Virus record (IMG/VR): IMGVR_UViG_2526164688_000015 | Coordinates: 1 to 10,214 of that record | Direction: 5' to 3' (one strand) | DNA length: 10,214 bases | From: a virus | Taxonomy: Duplodnaviria; Heunggongvirae; Uroviricota; Caudoviricetes | Shown: positions 1 through 10,214 of the stretch, piece after piece | How positions within the stretch are numbered: the first letter of the stretch is position 1 | How the letters are laid out: each line of letters opens with the position of its first letter | Notes under the pieces: model-generated | Databases searched by the model: none | The model's input: the letters and a program-made list of their open reading frames with translations, nothing else | What the model was told of the DNA's origin: nothing | Made by a program: the position numbers and the translations under genes

Positions 1-322
1 CCCCGGCAAAAGCCTGAAAGAAATCGTGGTCAGCGCGCCGGACGGCGCGGTGTTCCGCTACGACGCGGACGCAGGCGCGCTGAGCGCCAGCGGCATGAAA
101 ACAGCCAGCCTGCAGGCATCCGTCAGCGTGACACTGGACGCGCCCGTCGTGGAATGCACAGACCTTCTGAGAACAGCGACGCTTGACGTCACAAAAGGGG
201 GAAAGATGAGCGGCAATATCACGCACAGCGGCGGCGATTTCACCTCAAACGGCATCACAGTGCATACGCATAAACACGGTGGCGTGAAAGGCGGCAGTGA
301 TTCGACAGGAGGCCCGCAGTGA
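1..322 (+). CDS. V: Baseplate spike/assembly protein V, C-terminal part (5' end lies outside the window)
   Basis: Frame is open from the window edge to TGA at 320-322. The C-terminus (GNITHSGGDFTSNGITVHTHKHGGVKGGSDSTGGP) matches the conserved end of P2 gpV-type spike proteins as I recall them. Stop overlaps the next gene start (GTGA). Position immediately upstream of W-J-I fits the family. Confidence 0.8.
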   Translation, partial: PGKSLKEIVVSAPDGAVFRYDADAGALSASGMKTASLQASVSVTLDAPVVECTDLLRTATLDVTKGGKMSGNITHSGGDFTSNGITVHTHKHGGVKGGSDSTGGPQ

Positions 323-669
323 CAACCCGCTACACAGGAATGAATCCGGACGGGACGGGAAACCTGAACGATACGGAGCACCTGAAACAGTCAGTCAGGG
401 ACATCCTGACCACCCCGCTGGCAAGCCGGGTTATGCGACGGGAATATGGCAGCCTTGTGCCTGATTTGATTGACGAACCCATGAATAACACCACGCGTCT
501 GCAATGCATGAGTGCTGCCGTGATTGCACTGACGCGATGGGAACCCCGCATTGCCCTGGACGCTATCGACGTTGTCTGGAAAGCGGGAGGCCGCGCCGGG
601 GTGACGCTGTCGGGTACAGTCATGCAGACCATGCAGAATGTTGAATTAACCATCACACTGAGGGAGTAA
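319..669 (+). CDS. W: Baseplate wedge protein W (GPW/gp25 family)
   Basis: 116-aa ORF starting at GTG 319 with AGGAGG at 307-312. The N-terminus MTTRYTGMNPDG...SVRDILTTPLASRVMRREYGS closely resembles recalled P2 gpW. Translationally coupled to V. Confidence 0.9.
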   Translation: MTTRYTGMNPDGTGNLNDTEHLKQSVRDILTTPLASRVMRREYGSLVPDLIDEPMNNTTRLQCMSAAVIALTRWEPRIALDAIDVVWKAGGRAGVTLSGTVMQTMQNVELTITLRE

Positions 670-672
670 ATC

Positions 673-1569
673 ATGCCTGCCGTTGACCTTTCCCAGTTAC
701 CAGAACCCGCCATCATCGCGGAGCCTGATTTTGAGGCAATTCTGGCTGACACAAAGGCCATGATGATTGCAGCTTATCCCGCCGAACAGCGTGAAGTCGT
801 TTCCGCCGCGCTGGAGCTGGAATCGGAACCCCTGAACGTTATCGCCCAGACAACAGCGTTTCGTGAAATGCTGTTACGCCAGCGGGTCAATGAGGGTGCA
901 CGCGCCTGCATGTTAAGCCACAGCGCCGGAACAGACCTGGACAACCTCGCGGGCAATATGAACACAAAGCGCCTGGTTATCACTCCGGCAACGGATACCA
1001 CCGACGCGGTGATGGAGAGCGACACCTCGCTGAGACTGCGGGCGCAGCGGGCGTACGACGGCCTGAGTGTTGCTGGCCCGTCAGGTGCATACGAGTATTT
1101 TGCCCGCAGCGCCAGCGGTCTGGTGCGTGATGCGCGGGCTATCAGTCCGTCTCCGGCAAATGTGACGGTTTCCATCCTGTCTACTGAAGGCGACGGCACA
1201 GCAACGGAGGCGTTGCTTAATACCGTTCGCGCCGTTCTGAATGCAGAGGATACCCGCCCGGTGGCCGACCGCCTGACCGTACAGAGTGCCAGAATCGTGA
1301 CATGGCGGCTGAATGCAAAACTGTACTTTTACCCCGGCCCGGAATCCGAACCTATTCTGGCCGCGGCGGAATCGTCGTTCAGGAAGTGGCTGGCTGAGCA
1401 GGGGCTTATCGGTCAGGACGTGGCGTTGTCCGCCATTGCTGCCGCACTGCATGTACACGGTGTGCAACGCGTGGAGATAATCGAACCCACACAGAATATG
1501 GCCATCAGCGACATACAGGCGGCGCGCTGTGAGTCATTTACCATCAGCGAAGGTGGGCGCAATGAGTAA
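673..1569 (+). CDS. J: Baseplate assembly protein J
   Basis: 298-aa ORF with ATG 673 and a GAGGGAG RBS at 659-665. Near-collinear similarity to recalled P2 gpJ (MPxxDLxQLPxP...ESEPL...RQRVNE...GLSVAG..GAY.Y..RSA...SPSPA.VT.S.LS...RPVADR.TVQSA...PGPESEPI...LHVEGVQRVE). Confidence 0.93.
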   Translation: MPAVDLSQLPEPAIIAEPDFEAILADTKAMMIAAYPAEQREVVSAALELESEPLNVIAQTTAFREMLLRQRVNEGARACMLSHSAGTDLDNLAGNMNTKRLVITPATDTTDAVMESDTSLRLRAQRAYDGLSVAGPSGAYEYFARSASGLVRDARAISPSPANVTVSILSTEGDGTATEALLNTVRAVLNAEDTRPVADRLTVQSARIVTWRLNAKLYFYPGPESEPILAAAESSFRKWLAEQGLIGQDVALSAIAAALHVHGVQRVEIIEPTQNMAISDIQAARCESFTISEGGRNE

Positions 1570-2170
1570 TTCACTGTTACCGCCATCAGCCAGCAGTTTC
1601 ATGCGTTGTGCCGAAGCCGTCGGAACGCGCATTACAGACATTCCGGTAGACCTCAACACGCTGTGGTCGCCGGACACATGCCCGGTGCATCTGCTGCCTT
1701 ATCTCGCCTGGGCATTTTCCGTTGACCGCTGGGACCGCAACTGGCCGGAGGAAACAAAGCGCCAGGTGATTCGCGATGCGTGGCTGATACACCGACACAA
1801 GGGGACCATCAGCGCACTGCGAAGAGCCGTGGAGCCTCTCGGCTACCTGATTGAAGTAAAGGAGTGGTGGCAACTCAACGAGGAGCCGGGAACATTTCGC
1901 ATTGTTGTCGGAGTACTTGATCAGGGCATCACCGATGAAATGTATCAGGAACTTGAGCGCCTTATTGCGGATGCAAAACCAGTAAGTCGCCATCTGACGG
2001 GGCTGGCGATCAGCCTGAGTGTGAACGGAAAGATTTTCGTTAGTACGGGATGCTATCACGGCGATGCCCTGACGGTTTATCCCTACACCCCGGAGTCCAT
2101 TATTGTCGAAGGGGATTATTTCCCGGCCCCGGCCATTCATTTAATTGATAATCTGAGAGTAAACGCATGA
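1562..2170 (+). CDS. I: Tail protein I (baseplate)
   Basis: ATG 1562 overlaps the J stop (ATGAGTAA) and is preceded by GAAGGTGGG. The product MSNSLLPP...IRELWSPDTCP..LLPYLAWAFSVDRWD..WPE..KR.VIRDA...HKGTI.A.RR.VEPLGYLI.V.EWW resembles recalled P2 gpI. The ORF track's start at 1529 is an in-frame upstream ATG and less likely. Confidence 0.88.
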   Translation: MSNSLLPPSASSFMRCAEAVGTRITDIPVDLNTLWSPDTCPVHLLPYLAWAFSVDRWDRNWPEETKRQVIRDAWLIHRHKGTISALRRAVEPLGYLIEVKEWWQLNEEPGTFRIVVGVLDQGITDEMYQELERLIADAKPVSRHLTGLAISLSVNGKIFVSTGCYHGDALTVYPYTPESIIVEGDYFPAPAIHLIDNLRVNA

Positions 2171-3558
2171 CAGTGAAATACTACGCCATTCTGACTAATC
2201 AGGGCGCAGCACGGCTGGCTAACGCGACGATGCTCGGCAGTAAGCTGAATCTGACGCAAATGGCCGTTGGTGATGCGAATGGTGTCTTGCCGACACCAGA
2301 CCCGGCACAGACAAAACTGATTAATCAGAAACGCATTGCACCGCTGAATCTTCTGAGTGTTGACCCGAACAACCAGAGCCAGATTATTGCGGAGCAAATC
2401 ATCCCTGAAAACGAGGGAGGATTCTGGATCCGTGAGATTGGTCTTTATGATGATGAAGGTGTACTCATTGCGGTGGCAAACTGCCCGGAAACGTACAAAC
2501 CGCAGTTGCAGGAAGGCAGTGGACGCACCCAGACTATCCGCATGATTCTGGTTGTCACGAACACCGAAGCCATCACGTTGAAAATCGACCCATCTGTGGT
2601 TCTGGCAACCCGTAAATACGTGGATGATAAAGTCCTGGAATTAAAGCTGTATGTGGATGACCAGATGAGAAACCACATTGCCGCACAGGATCCCCATACC
2701 CAGTATGCACCGAAACATAATCCGACACTCACCGGAGAGCCAAAAGCGCCGACACCGCCCGCAGGAAGTAACACCACACGGATTGCGACCACTGCGTTTA
2801 TACAGGCCGCAATTACAGCGCTGATTGGCGGTGCACCTGCCACGCTGGACACGCTGAAAGAAATTGCCGCGGCCATTAACAATGACCCGAAATTCAGTAC
2901 CACCATTAACAATGCGCTGGCACTCAAAGCGCCTCTGTCGAGCCCGGCACTTACCGGAACGCCAACAGCACCTACAGCGGCACAGTCGGCCAACAATACA
3001 CAGATTGCCACCACGGCTTTTGTGAAATCAGCAATTGCGGCAATGGTGGGTTCTGCCCCTGCGGCATTGGATACACTGAATGAACTGGCGGCGGCACTGG
3101 GGAATGATCCGAACTTTGCCACGACAATGCTTAATGCGCTGGCAGGTAAACAACCGCTGGACAATACGCTGACTAATTTGAGTGGAAAGGATGTAGCTGG
3201 TCTTCTCGCATACCTTGGTTTGGGAGAAGCCAGATATGTCATTCAGCGAGGAGCTAATGCCAATGGTGCGTGGATACGCTGGTCAGATGGTGCAATAGAA
3301 GTCTTTGGAACGGGGGGTTCTAATGATAATGGACTGGCTAAAGTCGTTTATCCAATTGCGCTACCTAAGCTTTCACGTTTTATCAGCATAGCGGAAAGAA
3401 TAGGAACGGATTATGGGGGCACATCTAATAACGTTCACGTTTCAATGATCGTGGATGACCAGGTCACTAATACCGGTTTTTATGTCCGCTGCCAGATGTA
3501 CGACGGAACACCATCAACAAGTGCTTTTTCCTGGAGGGTTTATTGTGCGCCTGTTTAA
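2167..3558 (+). CDS. H: Tail fibre protein H (conserved N-terminal/shaft part fused to the currently expressed variable tip)
   Basis: 463-aa ORF with ATG 2167 overlapping the I stop (ATGA). The N-terminus (AVGDANGVLPTPDPAQT...GGFWIREIGLYDDEGVLIAVAN.PETYKP...GSGRTQT.RM) and the shaft repeats (NSPALTGTPTAPTA...NTQIATTAF...LDTLNELAAALGNDPNFATTMLNALAGKQP) match recalled P2 gpH/Mu S-type fibres. The last roughly 110 aa lie downstream of the crossover site at 3203-3228. Confidence 0.9.
   Translation: MTVKYYAILTNQGAARLANATMLGSKLNLTQMAVGDANGVLPTPDPAQTKLINQKRIAPLNLLSVDPNNQSQIIAEQIIPENEGGFWIREIGLYDDEGVLIAVANCPETYKPQLQEGSGRTQTIRMILVVTNTEAITLKIDPSVVLATRKYVDDKVLELKLYVDDQMRNHIAAQDPHTQYAPKHNPTLTGEPKAPTPPAGSNTTRIATTAFIQAAITALIGGAPATLDTLKEIAAAINNDPKFSTTINNALALKAPLSSPALTGTPTAPTAAQSANNTQIATTAFVKSAIAAMVGSAPAALDTLNELAAALGNDPNFATTMLNALAGKQPLDNTLTNLSGKDVAGLLAYLGLGEARYVIQRGANANGAWIRWSDGAIEVFGTGGSNDNGLAKVVYPIALPKLSRFISIAERIGTDYGGTSNNVHVSMIVDDQVTNTGFYVRCQMYDGTPSTSAFSWRVYCAPV
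2728..3159 (+). repeat. Two tandem 70-aa fibre-shaft repeats (about 2728-2937 and 2950-3159, period about 222 nt) inside H
   Basis: Repeat 1 LTGEPKAPTPPAGSNTTRIATTAFIQAAITALIGGAPATLDTLKEIAAAINNDPKFSTTINNALALKAPL aligns with repeat 2 LTGTPTAPTAAQSANNTQIATTAFVKSAIAAMVGSAPAALDTLNELAAALGNDPNFATTMLNALAGKQPL. The pattern is typical of phage tail-fibre repeat units. Confidence 0.7.
3203..3228. repeat. Left recombination (crossover) site for the DNA invertase, hix/gix/pix-like, inside the H coding sequence
   Basis: 26-bp imperfect palindrome TTCTCGCATACC-TT-GGTTTGGGAGAA with the AAACC/GGTTT core typical of Hin/Gin/Pin sites. The 14 bp at 3215-3228 are a perfect inverted repeat of 4814-4827. In the H frame the site encodes ..AYLGLGE... 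Confidence 0.7.
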
Positions 3559-3742
3559 TCCTGTTACTTTGACTGAAGTAATCCCCGGTCTTCATGACGT
3601 GACCGGGGCTGTTGAATTACCAGAAGATAACTGGTTTTTTACTGCATCTGAAATCCCTGAAGGAATGGAAATATCTGTTAACGAGAAGGGAGAACCCATT
3701 CTGATTGAGATTAAACCGTCTCAGGAGGAACTGGCCAGATGA
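3545..3742 (+). CDS. Small 65-aa protein downstream of the fibre tip; possible truncated or minimal tail-fibre assembly chaperone
   Basis: GTG 3545 with a strong GGAGG RBS at 3533-3537 (7-nt spacer), overlapping the H stop. The position is exactly where a tfa gene is expected. It is too short for a canonical Tfa of about 175-200 aa, and its 3' end overlaps the convergent antisense tfa by about 30 bp. Function is inferred from position only. Confidence 0.45.
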   Translation: MRLFNPVTLTEVIPGLHDVTGAVELPEDNWFFTASEIPEGMEISVNEKGEPILIEIKPSQEELAR

Positions 3743-4316
3743 CATCTGGCGCGGTGCTGGTATCTGTTGCCATCACCGCGTCAGTGTAATCCAGCACGGC
3801 GTTAAGTCGGGTGTTTTCTGCCTGCGTCAGCTTCCGCCCGGCCTGCAATTTCAGTTGAATCAGACTAATGGAAACCATTGCAGCATCAATCAGCGACTGC
3901 CGCTGTGTTTCTGCCATGTCTACTGCTGCTCTATGCTGTGCCTCGGTATCCGTCACCCATTTCTCACCATCCCATTTATCGTATGGCGTTAACGGGGCGA
4001 TAGTGGTTGTCTTTTCAGGGTAATCACCCGGAGCTGTGATTTCTTTTGATTCTCCTGTTTCGGTGCTATAGACGATTTCACCGCGATGGTCTGGCACATA
4101 TTCCCATGAGTTAAAATCTGCAGAACGGCAAATTGCATAACCAGCTTTATATGAGCCAGGAGCATCTAAACAGGAACATGCCGGGATACCGACACCCACA
4201 GCAAGATATTCGGTTGATGTGGAAATATATTCTCGTGTTTCACCATCATAATTATAAACGGTAATATCTCCCGCCTTTGTGGCGATGAGTTCCTTATTTA
4301 ATATAGCTTTATCCAT
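3711..4316 (-). CDS. Tail-fibre assembly protein (chaperone for the alternative, currently silent fibre tip)
   Basis: 201-aa ORF. ATG at 4316-4314 overlaps the stop of the upstream tip cassette (TGATG), with a GAGGG RBS. The size and the C-terminal region (...AETQRQSLIDAA...LQAGRKLTQAENTRLNAVLDYTDAV...STAPDVIWPVPP) are typical of Tfa/gpG/U-family chaperones. Confidence 0.8.
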   Translation of the reverse strand: MDKAILNKELIATKAGDITVYNYDGETREYISTSTEYLAVGVGIPACSCLDAPGSYKAGYAICRSADFNSWEYVPDHRGEIVYSTETGESKEITAPGDYPEKTTTIAPLTPYDKWDGEKWVTDTEAQHRAAVDMAETQRQSLIDAAMVSISLIQLKLQAGRKLTQAENTRLNAVLDYTDAVMATDTSTAPDVIWPVPPETV

Positions 4317-4867
4317 CAGGCAGCCCTCACGATATAATTAAAGGCAATGTTACGGGGTCGATTTTCGTTTGCAGTTGGAACAATTCTTGAAGCATCAAGG
4401 CCAATCACTTTTGGGTAAACACCGCCCTCGGACCTTTCTGTCACCATACTTCTGACTAAGGAGAAATAACTATTGTTCGTTGAGGGGTTCAAAGGCACCA
4501 CTGCCCCCTTAAACGAGCCTACTGATTCCCATATTGAATAATTTTCGGTGTTTACAGTCTTGAACTCACCATAGATATTACGTATGGCATCGCCCTGAGC
4601 GGATAATATTGTTCTCCCCGCATCCGCACTACGCCCATCATCCCAGCCACGAATAAATTCACCGCGTAAATCAGGCAATTTATTTGTCGGGTAAGCCTTT
4701 GCCAGTTCCGGGTATTCTTCAGCAGAAAAAGCCGCACCATTGCATTTCAGCCAGCCTGTCGGCGGAGTGGCGGAAGGCCACGGAACAGGCACACCGACAG
4801 GTAATGCAGAGCCTTCTCCCAAACCAACGTTTGTGAAAATGCAGAGATAACGGGTAACTGGCATCAT
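4316..4867 (-). CDS. Alternative tail-fibre C-terminal (receptor-binding tip) cassette, silent in this orientation
   Basis: 183-aa ORF on the minus strand. After the crossover site it encodes ..NVGLGEGSALPVGVPVPWPSATPPTGWLKCNGAAFSAEEYPELAKAYP.NKLPDLRGEFIRGWDDGR..DAGR, the widespread phage tail-fibre tip/collar motif. Inversion would fuse it in frame to the H shaft at the shared GLGE junction. Only the first 9-18 codons, including the ATG-ATG start, lie outside the invertible segment. Confidence 0.75.
   Translation of the reverse strand: MMPVTRYLCIFTNVGLGEGSALPVGVPVPWPSATPPTGWLKCNGAAFSAEEYPELAKAYPTNKLPDLRGEFIRGWDDGRSADAGRTILSAQGDAIRNIYGEFKTVNTENYSIWESVGSFKGAVVPLNPSTNNSYFSLVRSMVTERSEGGVYPKVIGLDASRIVPTANENRPRNIAFNYIVRAA
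4814..4839. repeat. Right recombination (crossover) site for the DNA invertase
   Basis: TTCTCCCAAACC-AA-CGTTTGTGAAAA. The first 14 bp are a perfect inverted repeat of 3215-3228, and the central dinucleotide (AA versus TT) is consistent with inverted orientation. The site lies 56 bp upstream of the invertase start, as in Mu gin, P1 cin and e14 pin. Confidence 0.7.
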
Positions 4868-4894
4868 CTCCGGTTTTTATTCAGGGGGATGCTC

Positions 4895-5485
4895 ATGCTT
4901 ATTGGTTATGTTCGCGTATCAACAAATGACCAGAACACGGAATTGCAGCGTAACGCGCTGGAGTGCGCAGGATGTGAACTGATTTTTGAAGATAAAATCA
5001 GCGGAACGAAATCAGCCAGACCGGGATTGAAAAAACTGCTCAGAACGCTATCAGAAGGAGATACGCTGGTTGTCTGGAAGCTGGACAGGCTGGGCAGGAG
5101 TATGAAACACCTGATCACGCTTATTGAGGAATTGCGGGAAAAAGGTGTTAATTTCCGTAGCCTGACGGACAGCATTGACACATCAACACCCATGGGGCGT
5201 TTCTTTTTTCACGTCATGGGAGCTTTAGCAGAAATGGAACGTGAATTAATTGTAGAGCGTACACTGGCCGGGCTGGCAGCAGCACGAGCACAGGGACGCA
5301 TTGGCGGACGTCGCCCGAAGTTGACAAAAGAACAACATGAGCAAATAGAAAGGCTGATTAAAAACGGCCATGACAGGAAACAACTGGCGATCATTTACGA
5401 CATCGGTATATCGACGATTTATCGTTATCACCCTGTAGGCGATATACAGGCTGAAGAAACAACCGGGCAGACTCAGGGAAAATAA
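4895..5485 (+). CDS. pin: Serine recombinase, DNA invertase of the Pin/Gin/Hin/Cin family
   Basis: Start at the second ATG (4895), which has an AGGGGG RBS at 4883-4888; the track's 4889 ATG has no spacer. The product MLIGYVRVSTNDQNTELQRNAL...LVVWKLDRLGRSMKHLI...FRSLTDSIDTSTPMGRFFFHVMGALAEMERELIVERT...GRIGGRRPKLT is almost diagnostic of this family, with the catalytic Ser in the YVRVSTNDQ motif and a C-terminal HTH. Confidence 0.95.
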   Translation: MLIGYVRVSTNDQNTELQRNALECAGCELIFEDKISGTKSARPGLKKLLRTLSEGDTLVVWKLDRLGRSMKHLITLIEELREKGVNFRSLTDSIDTSTPMGRFFFHVMGALAEMERELIVERTLAGLAAARAQGRIGGRRPKLTKEQHEQIERLIKNGHDRKQLAIIYDIGISTIYRYHPVGDIQAEETTGQTQGK

Positions 5486-5515
5486 AAAACCGCTAATCTG
5501 ACCATTAGCGGTTTT
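5486..5515. terminator. Bidirectional rho-independent terminator between the convergent invertase and tail-shaft operons
   Basis: Hairpin ACCGCTAAT-CTGACC-ATTAGCGGT (5489-5512) flanked by an A run on the 5' side and a T run on the 3' side. Sits in the 37-bp gap between the pin stop (5485) and the U stop (5523). Confidence 0.65.
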
Positions 5516-5522
5516 GCGTTAA

Positions 5523-6017
5523 TCAAAACAGCCCTTTAACGGAGCTGGCCGCGCTGTTAAGGGATGATGTGACCTTATCTTTGAAGCCGGACAGCATATC
5601 ACTGAACGATGAGGATTGCAGGCGCTCCCGCAAATCCTCATCACAGCGTTCAAGAGTCAGTGAAAATTCTATCTTTTTCGCCTTACCGTAGCGATCAAAC
5701 TCGGAACGGGTCGTATTCGTTTCAGTCAGCACATACATGCCGTAAATCTGCCCGACGCCATCAATCAAAGGCCAGGGTCGTCCTGTATACGCCTGCGTGG
5801 TCAGCAGCGACAGCGACACTTCGCCACCTGTAATTTCAGGATAAAGCACACCAGAAAGAACGATGCGATCATCACCTGCACCGATATACTGCCAGCTTGC
5901 TGAACGGTTAACGCGTTCATTTTTCACATGCCGCCAGCTTTTGTTTTGCTGTAACTGCTGATGCGGCAGCGTGCGCAGCTCAAAAACAAACATGCCGTAG
6001 ATCATCATCATGGCCAT
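5523..6017 (-). CDS. U: Tail protein U (P2 gpU family)
   Basis: 164-aa ORF directly downstream of the tape measure gene with a GAGGAG RBS. The motifs FELRTLP.Q.LQ....WRH...R.....Q..G.G.D.I.LSGVLYPE.TGG and GKA.KI.F.L.L resemble recalled P2 gpU. Confidence 0.85.
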   Translation of the reverse strand: MAMMMIYGMFVFELRTLPHQQLQQNKSWRHVKNERVNRSASWQYIGAGDDRIVLSGVLYPEITGGEVSLSLLTTQAYTGRPWPLIDGVGQIYGMYVLTETNTTRSEFDRYGKAKKIEFSLTLERCDEDLRERLQSSSFSDMLSGFKDKVTSSLNSAASSVKGLF

Positions 6018-6023
6018 GACTCC

Positions 6024-8867
6024 TCAATCTTTATCGTAAAAACTGCCACGCCCGGCACGGGCGCGCCGTTCCATTTCTGCCCTGACCATTTCACCGACCA
6101 GTTTCGCCAGTTCGCGGGGATTCTGCGTAACAACGTTATGCAGATGAACATGAATTTCACCACCAAATCCGGAGGCAACAGGCTCCCGGTTACGGGAAGT
6201 TACAGGAACTGATGCCACTGGAGATCGTATAGCCTCCGCCACCGGGCGGGAGCTGGCCGCAACAACAGGGACCAGCGCCGGAGGCAGCGGAGCCGGGACC
6301 ACGGGTGTGATATTAATTGCGGGGGCAGGCTTACTGACCTGCGCAATCTTCCGCTCCTGCCACTCCCCACGAACAGCAAGTGCTCGGGGCAGGTTTTTAA
6401 AGACAATATCGCCGGGGCCAATGCGTTTTTTCGTCTCCTCAACCAGCTTACCTGTGTTATCAGCAATTTTGCTGAGTCTGCGCAGCGTACCGGTATTGCT
6501 GTCTGTGAGCGGTTTATTGTCTTTGGGGTTATCACCTCCGGTGCCATTGCCATTTTCCACAGGCTTCGGCGGATTGATTTTCGCCAGGTCCCCCTGAAGC
6601 AAGGCAACCTTGTCCTGAAGAATGGCCGCACGCTGTGCGTCTTCGATTTTCTTGCGCGCCCTTTCCGCTTCATCCGGAAGCACACCAAGCTTTTCAAGTA
6701 TCCACGCCAGCGTATCCAGCAACATTTTTGCAGGTGTCAGAACAAGTTGTAACGCACCGCCAAGAACGTTACCGAATATCTCGCCAGCACTGGTACATTT
6801 ATCCAGAGTTTCCTTGCTGGACTCCATCGGTGACAGCAGCGATTTAAACCAGTTAAACACCTGGCTGATCCCACTCCCGATTGCGTCAAAAACAGGACCA
6901 AACCGTTCAAAGGTTTCGCGCAACGGGGTCAGCCTTTCCATAATCCCGCTGAACACCCCGGCAAAAAATGCCCTGATGGGATCCCAGTATTTCCAGATAA
7001 GAACGGCAGCTCCGGCAAGCGCAGCCACGATAAGACCAACCGGACTGAACAACGCCCCGATAGCGCCTCCCAGTAAAGAAACGGAACCCGTCACCATTCC
7101 CCATAGTGCTGGCAGAACCCTGACAGCATTCATTGATCCGGTCAGGAGGGAAAAACCAAGACGCAGTTTTGCCAGCGGGCCAGCAAGCACACCAATAGCC
7201 AGCGACAACGAGCCAACCGTTGCAGTCATTGCCAGCAGTGCACCGCCTGCAATCAGTAGCTGGCGCGTCAGTGCGGGATGGGCCTGCGCCAGCGCCGTCA
7301 CCTTTGATACCACACGCGTGAGCCACTGCGTGACAGAACGCAGCGGACCGTCAATCAGATCTGCAATGCGGATGCGCAACCCTTCCCATGCACTGCTGAG
7401 TGATTTCAGATCGCCGTCAAGGTTGTTGGCCATAACCTTTGCCGTGCGTTCAGCCTCACCGCGCGCGCCTTCAAGTTCTTTTCTCAGTTTGGGTAAGGAG
7501 CCGTCACCTGCCGCATCAACGAGGGCCATAAATGATGTGAAAGCCTCTTCTCCGGCAATGTCCTTAAAGAACGATACCCGGTCAACTTCCCCGTATTTGC
7601 GGGTAGCTTTATAAAGGTCAGCCAGCACATCCTCCATCGGGCGCATTTTGCCCCCGGCATCCGAGACAGACACGCCAAGCTCTTTCAGCGCCTCTGCTGC
7701 CGCCTTTGGCGGTGATGCCAGACGAGCCAGGCTGGCACGCATTGCCGTACCAGCATCACTCCCCCTGATCCCCATATTCGCTAGCACGCCCGCCATCGCT
7801 GCGGCCTGCTCCAGCGATATTCCCAGCTTACCCGCCACCGGACCTGCATATTTCATGGTTTCACCCAGTGCGCGAAGGTCAGTGTTGGTACGGGTAAACG
7901 CTGCGGTGAGTGTGTCGCCGACCCGGTCCATCTGGTCAGCAGAAAGACCGAACTGCGTCAGAATATTTGAGCCAATATCCGCCGTCTCACCGAGGTCCAT
8001 ACCGCCAGCCGTTGCCATGCTCAGTACGCCAGGGAGCGCAGCCTGAATGGCCTGCGGTGTGAAGCCAGCCATTGCAAGAAATGCCTGCCCACTGGCGGCA
8101 TCGCCTGCGGTGAACTGCGTTTCAGAGCCCAGTTTTAACGCCTGCTCACGCAGCGCCTTAAACTGCGGGCTGTTTTTGTCGATTCGCGTCAGTGCCTGAA
8201 CGCGGGACATCTCTTTCCCGAACCCGATCGCAGGCTGCAAAAAACGCCCGGCAGCATAGCCGCCCGCCGCTGCCGCACCAATTGCCAGCGCACCACCTGT
8301 TTTCAGTTTTCCCGCTGTTTCCTGCGCGCGCGAATACCGCTCACGCGCCCGCGTTACACGCGCAAGCGCCTGCCGTTCGCGTTCAAGCTGGTTGTTGTAC
8401 TGTTCGGTGCGTCTGATGGCCTGCTGGATGGTGTTATCGCTGCCTGTCAGGGAAATGCCGTGGCGTTTCAGCTCTCCGCCAAGCTCCCGCATTTTCTGAA
8501 TTTCCCGTGTGCGCGATTCATTCAGGCGTTCAAGCCGGGTGCTTAACTGCTGCATCAGCTTTTGTTGTTTTTCGCTGAGCACTGTACCCGTGCGTTGTAA
8601 CTGATTAAGGGCGTTAAGCTGGCGTCGTGCTTTCACGATACCCGCATCCGCTTTACTGACAGCGTCCCGGGCGCGCTCAAATGAACGCGCCTGACGCTCG
8701 AGATTTTTGATCGCCCCCTGCGTTCGCTGGATGGAGTCACCAAACTGCCCCATCAGGCGGCGGGCGTTTTCGGCAGGCCGGGTCAGCCTGTCAACGGCGC
8801 TGAAAGCGCCCCGGATGTCAAGAGTCTTCATTATCTGCATTCCCGCTGCGAAGTGCCGCCCGCTCAC
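6024..8867 (-). CDS. T: Tail tape measure protein T
   Basis: 947-aa ORF immediately downstream of E/E'. It has a coiled-coil-like N-terminal region, a long central hydrophobic Ala/Gly/Leu-rich region and a Pro-rich C-terminal segment. The start is uncertain: GTG 8867, or ATG 8840 or 8831. It overlaps the end of the E' frame, as in P2. Confidence 0.9.
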   Translation of the reverse strand: MSGRHFAAGMQIMKTLDIRGAFSAVDRLTRPAENARRLMGQFGDSIQRTQGAIKNLERQARSFERARDAVSKADAGIVKARRQLNALNQLQRTGTVLSEKQQKLMQQLSTRLERLNESRTREIQKMRELGGELKRHGISLTGSDNTIQQAIRRTEQYNNQLERERQALARVTRARERYSRAQETAGKLKTGGALAIGAAAAGGYAAGRFLQPAIGFGKEMSRVQALTRIDKNSPQFKALREQALKLGSETQFTAGDAASGQAFLAMAGFTPQAIQAALPGVLSMATAGGMDLGETADIGSNILTQFGLSADQMDRVGDTLTAAFTRTNTDLRALGETMKYAGPVAGKLGISLEQAAAMAGVLANMGIRGSDAGTAMRASLARLASPPKAAAEALKELGVSVSDAGGKMRPMEDVLADLYKATRKYGEVDRVSFFKDIAGEEAFTSFMALVDAAGDGSLPKLRKELEGARGEAERTAKVMANNLDGDLKSLSSAWEGLRIRIADLIDGPLRSVTQWLTRVVSKVTALAQAHPALTRQLLIAGGALLAMTATVGSLSLAIGVLAGPLAKLRLGFSLLTGSMNAVRVLPALWGMVTGSVSLLGGAIGALFSPVGLIVAALAGAAVLIWKYWDPIRAFFAGVFSGIMERLTPLRETFERFGPVFDAIGSGISQVFNWFKSLLSPMESSKETLDKCTSAGEIFGNVLGGALQLVLTPAKMLLDTLAWILEKLGVLPDEAERARKKIEDAQRAAILQDKVALLQGDLAKINPPKPVENGNGTGGDNPKDNKPLTDSNTGTLRRLSKIADNTGKLVEETKKRIGPGDIVFKNLPRALAVRGEWQERKIAQVSKPAPAINITPVVPAPLPPALVPVVAASSRPVAEAIRSPVASVPVTSRNREPVASGFGGEIHVHLHNVVTQNPRELAKLVGEMVRAEMERRARAGRGSFYDKD

Positions 8868-9356
8868 GCCAGCTAACCACTTCGCCGGGCGTCATCATGA
8901 AGATTTCGGCGGGCGACCAGTTAAAAATGGCGGCAATATCCGCCACCAGATCTTCGATGTGCTCAAAGCACACCAGGGTGATTACGCTGCCGTCTCCTGC
9001 ACGCTCTTCGCGCCAGAGTCTGGCTCGCTCATAAAATTTACAGCCACAGCGCACAACTGAATAAAATCGCGTGACGACATTTTTTTAATCATCACTTCAT
9101 CCAGTCGTGGCGAAGTCACGCGAGGCAACAGCGTGAACATGGTATCCGCTTTCAGATTCAGCACATCAGACAGCGACAGACCACGCAGGGATCCCGCCTG
9201 CTCAATAGCCCCGGTGATTTCCACATATGTGATTTTTTCGGCACCACGCTCAATTGGCCGGGAAAGTTTTACACCACGTTCGACAGCCATATCCTCACCT
9301 GCCGTCACATCATCCGCTACGGTGTTATTCCGGGTTTCAGTATCGATGTCTTTCAT
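8818..9356 (-). CDS. Tail assembly chaperone E+E' (predicted programmed -1 frameshift product)
   Basis: The ORF at 8818-9054 is in the -1 frame relative to E by coordinate arithmetic. That frame opens just after a TAA at 9087-9085 and runs to a stop at 8818, overlapping the T start. An A7 tract at 9080-9086 lies in the overlap. The architecture matches the P2 E/E' and lambda G/GT paradigm. Confidence 0.6.
8982..9356 (-). CDS. E: Tail assembly chaperone E (zero-frame product)
   Basis: 124-aa ORF with ATG 9356 and an AAGGAGA RBS. It lies between the tube and tape measure genes, which is the conserved position of the frameshifting chaperone pair. Confidence 0.8.
   Translation of the reverse strand: MKDIDTETRNNTVADDVTAGEDMAVERGVKLSRPIERGAEKITYVEITGAIEQAGSLRGLSLSDVLNLKADTMFTLLPRVTSPRLDEVMIKKMSSRDFIQLCAVAVNFMSEPDSGAKSVQETAA
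9080..9086 (-). other. Candidate slippery site (A7 on the mRNA) for the E to E' -1 frameshift
   Basis: The E frame reads ATT-AAA-AAA-ATG (I-K-K-M). The homopolymeric A7 run sits exactly where the -1 frame becomes open. Confidence 0.5.
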
Positions 9357-9379
9357 CAGTTGTCTCCTTTTCAGTCAGA

Positions 9380-9398
9380 GGCGACGCACTGCGCCGCC
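9380..9398 (-). other. GC-rich stem-loop in the FII-E intergenic region (possible attenuator or mRNA stability element)
   Basis: The mRNA sequence GGCGGCGCA-GU-GCGUCGCC can form an 8-bp stem including one G-U pair. There is no downstream U tract, so it is not a canonical terminator. It lies in the 55-nt gap between the tube gene stop and the E RBS. Confidence 0.35.
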
Positions 9399-9411
9399 TG
9401 CATATTACTTA

Positions 9412-9924
9412 TCAGCCAAGCCCAAGCGCGGAGCGAATGCGGTCAGGCACAATGTCCTTGCCGTCCTTCCGGTAGATGTGGTTCAACAGGTCGATTTCCC
9501 ACAGCGGGCGATCGTTAACACTCAGCTTGTAGTAGGTGTTTTTGACAGCGTATGTGTGTGATGTGGCTTCGCCCTGTTTGGCCTCCCCCATATCAATTTC
9601 CGTCACACGCCCGCGCATCTCGATTTCATACAGATCGCTTTCTGCATCGGTGTAATATTCACCCGCAAAACGCAGCAGCGTGCCGTCAATCGTGCCGCCA
9701 TACTTAAGGAACAGTGCACGAACAGCTCCACCCATGACAAAGCTCGCATCAAGCGCGGAGTCGTCCAGACCGAGATCAATACTTACCGCCCCCATCATGC
9801 CACCACCACGATAACTGTCGGTTTTGCGCGTCAGTTTGGGCGGCGTGACGGATGTCACTTTACCCACTTCGTTTTCACCATCCACAAACAACGTAAAAAA
9901 GCGAAGATGTTTTGGTACAGCCAT
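9412..9924 (-). CDS. FII: Major tail tube protein FII
   Basis: 170-aa ORF with ATG at 9924-9922 overlapping the sheath stop (TGATG) and a GGGAGG RBS. The size and position immediately after the sheath gene fit P2 FII-family tube proteins. Confidence 0.88.
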   Translation of the reverse strand: MAVPKHLRFFTLFVDGENEVGKVTSVTPPKLTRKTDSYRGGGMMGAVSIDLGLDDSALDASFVMGGAVRALFLKYGGTIDGTLLRFAGEYYTDAESDLYEIEMRGRVTEIDMGEAKQGEATSHTYAVKNTYYKLSVNDRPLWEIDLLNHIYRKDGKDIVPDRIRSALGLG

Positions 9925-10214
9925 CAGGCACCTCCCAGCACCGCAAATGCGGGACCAAAGAATTCATCAGTAAACGTCTGGTAAAGCTCCATGTCTTCCA
10001 GCGGGGGAACGGGCGTATATTTGTAGCGAATACGCACACGCCCCTGACGTAAATCCGTGGTGCCGTTATCCACCACGTCATACCAGCACTCCGCGCCAAT
10101 CAGTTTCCCGGCAGTAACCAGTGAATCCAGTTTTGCCCTGATGGCACTGATAACATCCTTCACGTTCGCAGGCGTCAGTGGACTGTCGATGGTTTCAAAC
10201 TGCGCTTCCGCAAT
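9924..10214 (-). CDS. FI: Tail sheath protein FI, C-terminal part (5' end lies outside the window)
   Basis: The reading frame is open from the window edge (10214) down to TGA at 9926-9924. The C-terminus ..WYDVVDNGTTDLRQGRVRIRYKYTPVPPLEDMELYQTFTDEFF.. and its position upstream of the tube gene fit contractile sheath proteins. Confidence 0.85.
   Translation of the reverse strand: MAEAQFETIDSPLTPANVKDVISAIRAKLDSLVTAGKLIGAECWYDVVDNGTTDLRQGRVRIRYKYTPVPPLEDMELYQTFTDEFFGPAFAVLGGA

Follow-up and report, generated by a model that had tools for sequence, protein, structure and literature searches.

Tail chaperone E and its putative -1 frameshift extension E' in a P88-like prophage of Escherichia coli

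The E and E+E' proteins of phage P2 reportedly result from a programmed -1 frameshift at a TTTTTTG heptamer, experimentally established by Christie and co-workers in 2002 (J Bacteriol 184:6522, cited through PMC3091744 and PMC3931495). The heptamer of lambda is G_GGA_AAG. The G/GT pair of lambda (Levin 1993; Xu, Hendrix and Duda 2004, 2013, 2014; reviewed in PMC5009743) and the locus described here share a common N-terminus of the two products, a ratio plausibly dictated by infrequent -1 shifting, and a location between tube and tape-measure genes. In contrast, they have no sequence similarity, and lambda is a siphovirus, whereas the DNA analysed here belongs to a contractile-tail phage. Canonical X_XXY_YYZ tandem-slippage heptamers also occur in E. 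coli dnaX and the IS911/IS3 elements, but these are accompanied by defined stimulators (an upstream Shine-Dalgarno sequence, a downstream hairpin or pseudoknot), and none that is conserved is evident in our case.

The window under analysis (10,214 nucleotides; positions 1 to 10,214 of the IMG/VR record IMGVR_UViG_2526164688_000015) is a P88-like (Xuanwuvirus, Peduoviridae) E. coli prophage of a common type. Judged by comparison with relatives, a programmed -1 shift giving E+E' is by far the best reading of the locus, and it is quite probable that E+E' is made, in this P88-like prophage of the P2 family, by a minority of ribosomes slipping at A_AAU_UUU. The locus is an ordinary member of the known P2-family frameshift kind, with a variant heptamer.

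Gene order and the E and E' reading frames

Pfam matches order the minus-strand genes as tube (PF04985), E, a -1 ORF carrying PF06528, tape measure (PF10145) and U (Table 1). The E/-1 ORF pair sits, as in P2, between tube (FII) and tape measure (T), and the second ORF lacks a ribosome-binding site of its own. The sequence-only reading had described this ORF (9054-8818, minus strand) as offset by -1 from E, and re-reading of the frames found the offset correct. No stop interrupts the -1 frame between the TAA at 9087-9085 and the TGA at 8820-8818, and it shares 100 nt with E. It ends 14 nt inside T (translated from 8831 as MKTLDIRGAF), in agreement with the earlier remark that an extended product would terminate in the tape-measure start region.

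Table 1. Positions of the features discussed, in window coordinates
Feature	Position	Strand	Basis and remarks
PF04985 Phage_tube	9924-9412	-	Pfam match
Shine-Dalgarno of E, AAGGAG	9364..9369	-	Read from sequence; 7 nt upstream of ATG
Gene E, tail assembly chaperone, 124 aa	8982..9356	-	ORF list and translation; ATG at 9356, TAA at 8984-8982
A7 run	9080..9086	-	Lys91-Lys92 and A of Met93; earlier candidate, probably not the programmed site
Proposed slippery heptamer A_AAT_TTT	9033..9039	-	E codons Asn107-Phe108; base 9033 would be read twice
E' part after the putative shift, 71 aa, YERARLW...NADNEDS	8818..9033	-	-1 frame; stop TGA 8820-8818
Possible interrupted hairpin	8986..9028 (core 9018-8994)	-	Begins 4-8 nt past heptamer
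ATG of tape-measure gene T	8829..8831	-	Transferred from the RefSeq annotation of a prophage with 99.8% identity
Tape-measure ORF with PF10145	8840/8831 to 6024	-	Pfam; PhageMin_Tail, E=3.6e-58

E matches phrog_103 (tail protein; E=3.3e-36) and, weakly, Pfam Phage_TAC_7 (PF10109; 18 bits against a cut-off of 25). The latter match covers E residues 29-109, running past the A7 run up to the heptamer. Neither E nor the fused protein had a match in NCBIfam. The -1 ORF is recognized by Pfam PF06528 (Phage_P2_GpE; E=2.9e-12) and by phrog_1756 (E=1.8e-38), the latter aligned to fused residues 104-177, and on this comparative ground is a real coding sequence, beyond chance. In tblastn searches the fused protein detected P2, 186 and L-413C at 37-39% identity, each in two pieces (E about 1e-15), both the E and the E' parts being homologous to their P2 counterparts. 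A profile search of the PDB based on the E+E' alignment returned nothing meaningful, the best match being an unrelated transferase (E=0.97). Gene order, homology to P2 and the purifying selection on the -1 frame discussed below all bear out the earlier proposal of a conserved tail-chaperone frameshift between tube and tape measure.

The window shares with P2 homologous proteins (38% identity to P2, PF06528), an E' in the -1 frame that overlaps the start of T, and a putative slip site in the same alignment column, at a Phe codon close to where the E domain ends. The two systems differ in size, as E and E+E' are 91 and 142 aa in P2, and 124 and a predicted 179 aa in the window, which has a longer N-terminus and a linker longer by about 14 aa, including a GDG motif. 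The zero-frame tail past the site also varies, being 6 codons in P2 and 16 in the window, where it reads MSEPDSGAKSVQETAA and is counted within the 124 aa.

Frame constraint and position of the probable slip site

The comparison of the window with P88 is informative on where the coding frame changes. From A7 to 9039 the E frame has 7 synonymous and 2 non-synonymous substitutions, the -1 frame 0 and 10, and 9 of the 11 differences between A7 and heptamer fall at E-frame third positions. After 9033 the ratios are inverted, being 6:3 in the -1 frame and 1:8 in the E frame; for the E' part, 6:3 and 5:3 were counted in the -1 frame against P88. From the heptamer onward the -1 frame is, by its substitution pattern, under purifying selection; the selection signature switches frame at A_AAT_TTT, where the comparative data place the slip. 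When 23 more divergent sequences are considered, variable columns in the A7-to-heptamer segment are distributed by codon position as 9, 8 and 11, a pattern less clean because amino-acid divergence saturates in this segment; the pairwise comparison is the clearer test.

A_AAT_TTT is the sole in-frame X_XXY_YYZ heptamer within the E/-1 overlap of the window, and permits re-pairing of both tRNAs. Pattern scans found no TTTTTTG anywhere in the region, and at the conserved Phe-Leu the window reads AAT TTT ATG. The segment at 9036-9030 is TTTTATG, aligns with the P2 TTTTTTG, and is overlapped by A_AAT_TTT, located one codon upstream of the column of the P2, L-413C and 186 T_TTT_TTG. The sequence-only reading had correctly attributed a T-rich heptamer to P2 and contrasted it with an A run in the window, overlooking that the homologous T-run is present, with one T now an A. 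The heptamer differs from that of P2; position and proposed mechanism do not.

Most ribosomes would translate E and terminate at 8984-8982. A minority would move back one base on A_AAU_UUU. In the P site tRNA-Asn would exchange AAU for AAA, and in the A site tRNA-Phe would pair with UUU both before and after the slip. Reading would then go on in the -1 frame, across the GpE domain, until the TGA at 8820-8818 is reached. The resulting 179-aa E+E' would carry the junction ...LCAVAVNF|YERARLW..., in place of the ..IKK/NVVTRFY.. junction predicted earlier; DFIQLCAVAVNFYER is the tryptic peptide expected from it. The peptide DFIQLCAVAVNFMSEPDSGAK would mark plain E. If the pair works like those of P2 and lambda (G/GT), binding of the tape-measure protein would fall to the shared E part and recruitment of the tube protein to the E' part, with slip frequency determining the E to E+E' ratio. 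Tandem slippage on the heptamer and single-tRNA slippage on U_UUU would yield the same protein, and the comparative data fit either. A second U_UUU tetramer, in GAT TTT (about 9069-9066), was discarded, being located upstream of the -1 stop of P88-type phages, which have GAC TTT there.

In E. coli reporters, frameshifting at A_AAU_UUU was 0.070% with no stimulator, 0.355% with that of IS911 and 11.4% with the IS3 pseudoknot, the corresponding values for the P2 U_UUU_UUG being 0.118, 0.247 and 0.765% (PMC4066793). H_HH.U_UU.Y motifs rank among the most efficient in this host (PMC4066793), but unstimulated A_AAU_UUU is barely above the background of about 0.055% (PMC4066793). Also counting against the site, a single record, the prophage of E. 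coli 2015C-3108, has lost the heptamer through AAC in place of AAT at 9036; this prophage may be decaying. The sole candidate stimulator is the interrupted hairpin at 9028-8986, and its role is uncertain. Its stability is marginal (MFE -18.9 kcal/mol, z -1.85; 11 of 200 shuffles fold equally well), and it is not conserved, being absent from the P88 type and from the other relatives compared. P2 has been reported to lack such a stimulatory structure (PMC3091744). A terminator-like hairpin at 8948-8928 is lineage-specific and probably incidental.

The A7 run and other conceivable origins of E'

The sequence-only reading had located the slip at the A7 run, 47 bases upstream of the heptamer. It rightly observed that the run (9086-9080) coincides with the TAA at 9087-9085 from which the -1 frame is open in the window type, and that the mRNA reads AUU AAA AAA AUG in the E frame. 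E. coli genes are depleted in A7 runs, and the authors who report this suggest slippage during transcription or frequent indel mutation as possible reasons; the run is found in all 24 Xuanwuvirus-like loci surveyed. Slippage of tRNA-Lys, or the addition of one A by RNA polymerase, would give E(1-92) followed by NVVTRFYSVVRCGCKF and the E' domain. Yet the run consists simply of two Lys codons (AAA AAA) and the first base of ATG, an open frame of 16 codons is expected by chance in roughly 46% of cases, (61/64)^16, and that the -1 frame opens at this run carries no meaning. A7 is retained in P88, Chuche and E. coli C8, but their -1 frame meets a TGA four codons further on, and a stop follows A7 in 12 of 23 distinct Xuanwuvirus-like sequences. 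Conversely, A7 is missing in 56 more distant loci which nonetheless have E'. The conservation of the -1 ORF in homologues, invoked with the A7 site, holds from the heptamer onward and fails upstream of it, where the stretch is unconstrained, with 0 synonymous against 10 non-synonymous changes, and is interrupted in the P88 type. The Pfam TAC_7 match to E extends beyond A7, to residue 109. The phasing AAA_AAA_A provides only an A_AAA tetramer, at which E. coli reporters shifted at 0.125%, or 0.256% when a pseudoknot was present, and no structure is predicted downstream of the run (z +1.0 and +0.1). Known bacterial sites of programmed transcriptional slippage are runs of about 9 or more; here the run is seven long, and the -1 frame that follows it is closed in P88-type phages and shows the 0:10 ratio. 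A shift at A7 as the source of E+E' is on these grounds highly improbable, and the ribosome most likely slips, as far as the comparisons tell, at A_AAU_UUU (9039-9033).

The -1 frame, open in the window type from A7 onward, and the low but measurable slippage on A_AAA would also fit the activity of both sites in this lineage, the heptamer giving the functional E+E' and A7 a minor, aberrant by-product isoform. No sign of selection for an A7 product is seen, its expected level is near background, and we consider such a double origin unlikely. We give very little credence to E' being an independent protein of 51 aa, made from the GTG at 8973 with no frameshift, even if PGAP and several phage records place a stand-alone CDS there ('GpE family phage tail protein') and the ORF translates cleanly from this codon. 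The GTG has no Shine-Dalgarno-like sequence upstream, and the phrog_1756 alignment begins well before it in the fused protein, at residue 104. The -1 frame is conserved from the heptamer on, over some 20 codons that precede the GTG, and these include the GDG motif, common to relatives at 46-51% identity; E' therefore cannot start at 8973. In P2, moreover, E' has no ribosome-binding site, and is described as an extension of E via a -1 frameshift (PMC3931495, PMC3091744).

Heptamer variation among relatives and annotation

The heptamer favoured here, A_AAT_TTT, is one of several found at this position. In an alignment of 16 phages T_TTT_TTG is found in 12 at the column equivalent to 9036-9030, in 11 of them at the exact column. 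In 79 of 80 related IMG/VR contigs the only in-frame canonical heptamers of the overlap are at the T-run by the conserved Phe codon; 12 of these 79 are of the window type. A_AAT_TTT itself is found in 24 of the 80 contigs, and the heptamers found across the family are T_TTT_TTG, A_AAT_TTT, C_CCT_TTC, T_TTT_TTA and G_GGA_AAG. The predicted slip position is fixed at one Phe codon across the family while the heptamer varies, a turnover that redundant overlapping heptamers would permit.

E. coli prophages of the P88/Xuanwuvirus type share with the window about 86% nucleotide identity, gene order and A_AAT_TTT. They differ by the TGA that shuts the -1 frame just after A7, and for having kept the overlapping T_TTT_TTG (AAATTTTTTG); in the heptamer region one substitution, T to A at 9032, sets the window type apart. 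Similarly, T6G is disrupted (TTT CTT G) in Klebsiella Reipivirus-like phages (Kp4846-1 type), which keep an upstream-shifted C_CCT_TTC at the same Phe codon, but the heptamer is another one, protein identity is about 51%, and A7 is lacking. As a rather doubtful possibility, turnover may have been accompanied by compensation: one T to A change would have destroyed U_UUU_UUG, the shift would have moved to A_AAU_UUU one codon upstream, and the hairpin downstream (9028-8986) may have arisen as a stimulator. The lineage concerned is that of E. coli/Citrobacter, and the change to C_CCU_UUC in Klebsiella phages would be a parallel one. A_AAU_UUU is strongly responsive to stimulators in reporters, rising from 0.07% to 11%.

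In the records of close relatives that were inspected E' is either a free-standing 51-aa gene or unannotated. The frameshift is marked only in two distant ones, L-413C, where the join is annotated as a -1 frameshift, and 186, where a probable frameshift is noted. A join at 9033 would give the correct 179-aa product. The locus is chiefly of value to annotation and, on a small scale, as an example of recoding; the understanding of tail assembly and frameshifting is unchanged.

The prophage family is present in 1,374 of 5,426 complete E. coli genomes (about one quarter), and the exact 81-nt site region is found in 514 E. coli records. In E. coli A0 34/86 identity to the window is 99.8% across the 801 nt searched. 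The overlap region is identical to that of the window also in PhiSM of Citrobacter rodentium (GenBank record Shae_phiSM, if this is the same phage), which has been described as plaque-forming (PMC6456863).

The tail operon and its overlapping frames

The minus strand of the window carries a P2-type tail operon. E, the tail assembly chaperone ORF, is accompanied by an ORF in the -1 frame, which ends 14 nt within the tape-measure gene T (start ATG at 8831) and is a genuine coding sequence, matching PF06528 (Phage_P2_GpE, E=2.9e-12) and phrog_1756 (E=1.8e-38). The description in the sequence-only reading of the -1 offset, the upstream TAA, the A run known as A7 and the end within the T start is therefore right in every detail.

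Coordinates of the tail operon and of the adjoining tail-fibre region
Feature	Position	Strand	Remarks
Tube protein FII	9924-9412	minus	PF04985, E=2e-45
Shine-Dalgarno of E	9369-9364	minus	AAGGAG
E	9356-8982	minus	124-aa ORF
A7 run	9086-9080	minus	AUU AAA AAA AUG in E frame
ORF in -1 frame relative to E	open from TAA 9087-9085 to TGA 8820-8818	minus	
Tape-measure gene T	~8831 to 6024	minus	PF10145
gpU	6017-5523	minus	
Serine invertase, Hin/Gin type	4889-5485	plus	PF00239, E=5e-52
Tail-fibre C-terminal and tail-fibre-assembly cassettes	4316-4867 and 3711-4316	minus	
Main tail-fibre gene	2167-3558	plus	

The fused product E+E', where E' is the part read in the -1 frame, matches by tblastn P2, 186, L-413C and about 400 other Peduoviridae, and each match is split in two pieces, the pattern expected of a frameshift. 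E+E' is annotated as a -1 frameshift join in L-413C, and a probable frameshift is noted in the record of phage 186. P2 is reported to slip at TTTTTTG, without a downstream hairpin, to yield E (91 aa) and E+E' (142 aa) (PMC3091744), and P2 E' is described as devoid of a ribosome-binding site and overlapping T (PMC3931495). On sequence grounds, the feature is predicted to be the programmed -1 frameshift of the P2-family E/E+E' pair, carried here by a P88-like prophage. That ribosomes slip here, how often they do so and what each of the two domains does are inferred.

A GC-rich hairpin lacking a U-tract is found between FII and E (AGGCGGCGC-AGU-GCGUCGCCU; 9379-9400, minus; dG about -15.9, z -2.1). 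It occupies the place of the annotated partial terminator tI of phage 186, and is unchanged among aligned Xuanwuvirus sequences.

Probable position of the slip site

Four lines of evidence, independent of one another, place the probable slip site at the heptamer A_AAT_TTT (9039-9033) and not at A7. T_TTT_TTG is present in 12 of 16 aligned phages, in 11 of these exactly at the aligned column. The window reads TTTTATG at the equivalent position (9036-9030) and keeps A_AAT_TTT, an overlapping canonical heptamer one codon upstream, which is the sole in-frame X_XXY_YYZ in the 100-nt overlap. P88-type relatives have both heptamers (AAATTTTTTG), so a single T to A substitution, at 9032, separates the window type from them. 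The open stretch of the -1 frame begins three codons ahead of the heptamer in L-413C, and immediately at it in a Shewanella phage. In the comparison of window and P88, synonymous to non-synonymous changes from A7 to the heptamer are 7:2 in the E frame and 0:10 in the -1 frame, and E-frame third positions hold 9 of the 11 differences; the two ratios become 1:8 and 6:3 from the heptamer to the E stop, and 0:8 and 5:3 from there to the E' stop. The predicted product is the minus-strand join 9356..9033 + 9033..8818 (108 + 71 = 179 aa), with the predicted junction ...AVAVNF/YERARLW...

The sequence-only reading had placed a frameshift between tube and tape measure genes, and this general idea holds; slippage at A7, with the junction IKK/NVVTRFY, is not supported. 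P88, Chuche and E. coli C8 all retain A7, yet their -1 frame is closed by a TGA four codons past it, and stops interrupt the A7-heptamer interval in 12 of 23 distinct Xuanwuvirus-like sequences. The lack of synonymous -1-frame changes in this interval similarly disfavours A7. Its phasing, AAA_AAA_A, gives only the poor tetramer A_AAA (0.125% in E. coli reporters, or 0.256% when a pseudoknot is present; PMC4066793), and no fold was found downstream of it (z-scores +1.0 and +0.1). The inspected records of close relatives either lack E' or show it as a separate 51-aa CDS from GTG at 8973. Synthesis of E' from this GTG is unlikely, as no SD-like sequence precedes it, -1-frame conservation, GDG motif included, reaches about 20 codons upstream in relatives of 46-51% identity, and the alignment to the phrog_1756 profile begins at fused residue 104.

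For the heptamers themselves, -1 frameshifting in the E. coli reporters of Sharma et al. 2014 with no stimulator, IS911 stimulators and the IS3 pseudoknot was, respectively, 0.070%, 0.355% and 11.4% at A_AAU_UUU, 0.118%, 0.247% and 0.765% at U_UUU_UUG, and 0.193%, 1.39% and 23.2% at C_CCU_UUC; H_HH.U_UU.Y is among the most efficient motifs in E. coli (PMC4066793). RNA folding predicted a possible interrupted hairpin past the window heptamer (9028-8986; dG -18.9 kcal/mol, z -1.85, matched by 11 of 200 shuffles), absent from P88-type and other relatives compared. A terminator-like hairpin within E' (GGUGGCGG-AUAUU-CCGCCA then U5; 8928-8948, minus; dG -13.1, z -3.6) falls in the stretch from the E stop to the T start. 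P88, Kp4846 and P2-type relatives show it weakly or not at all, so it probably arises incidentally from the partly palindromic ADIA codons.

Turnover of the heptamer among relatives

The frameshift predicted in the window is an ordinary case of a known system, of mild interest in one respect: slippery heptamers have replaced one another while the position stayed the same. Among 80 IMG/VR relatives, 79 have all in-frame canonical slippery heptamers of the overlap at a T-run next to the conserved Phe codon. T_TTT_TTG occurs alone in 24 loci, with an overlapping A_AAT_TTT in 12, and with an overlapping C_CCT_TTT in 8; C_CCT_TTC only is found in 17, A_AAT_TTT only (window type) in 12, T_TTT_TTA in 4, and T_TTT_TTT, alone or with an overlapping C_CCT_TTT, in 2. 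Upstream runs of at least 6 A's are restricted to the 24 Xuanwuvirus-like loci among the 80 surveyed. The searchable literature yielded no report of a tail-chaperone slip site at A_AAU_UUU.

In IMGVR_UViG_2565956773_000017 the T-run is T7, not T6 (around 872-878), which places E and E' in one uninterrupted frame whose product is that predicted for the frameshift; in another surveyed locus, L046, the T-run is T8 (around 839). Either the homopolymers were misread in sequencing, or the slippery run truly varies in length.

Distribution, variants and annotation

Over the 801-nt region searched, identity is 97.8% with Xuanwuvirus P884B11 and Citrobacter phage Shae_phiSM, and 86% with phage P88. Among complete E. 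coli genomes, 1,374 of 5,426 have this region (best match 99.8%); the exact 81-nt site region occurs in 514 E. coli records. None of the inspected records of close relatives annotates a frameshift. The overlap region of Shae_phiSM is identical to that of the window. Its GenBank record may be that of the published PhiSM of C. rodentium, which is reported to be a temperate phage, fully functional and able to form plaques (PMC6456863); this would be evidence for a working site of the window type. Of about 596 matching records, a single one had a heptamer-breaking change at 9036. In this strain, 2015C-3108 (NZ_CP027307.1), T to C turns AAT into AAC, synonymous in E; the variant could serve as a naturally occurring slip-site knock-out, or else it may be the sign of a prophage in decay.

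E of E. coli C8 (NZ_CP192626.1), compared with window 8982-9356, is a mosaic, window-type in its 5' part and P88-type from about codon 70 onward, TGA after A7 and TTTTTTG included, which indicates recombination inside E between two prophage types. A 34-nt stretch coding for E' (8863-8896) has a 100% match within a CRISPR array annotated in E. coli strain GmM066 (NZ_CM183652.1), and a natural E. coli spacer therefore appears to target the E' region of this prophage.

Public records of relatives, NC_026014.1, NC_049341.1 and OR565851.1 among them, contain annotation oddities: several RefSeq phage records name the tube protein 'head closure', and OR565851.1 gives the sheath gene as 'late control gene D protein'. 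PhiSM is described as a siphovirus with non-contractile tails (PMC6456863), yet the PhiSM genome includes a P2-type tube gene, as well as a homologue of the gene labelled tail sheath in the P88 record. In the tail-fibre region, the invertase adjoins the oppositely oriented cassettes, and 3711-5485 resembles a Mu/P1-type invertible switch of host range.
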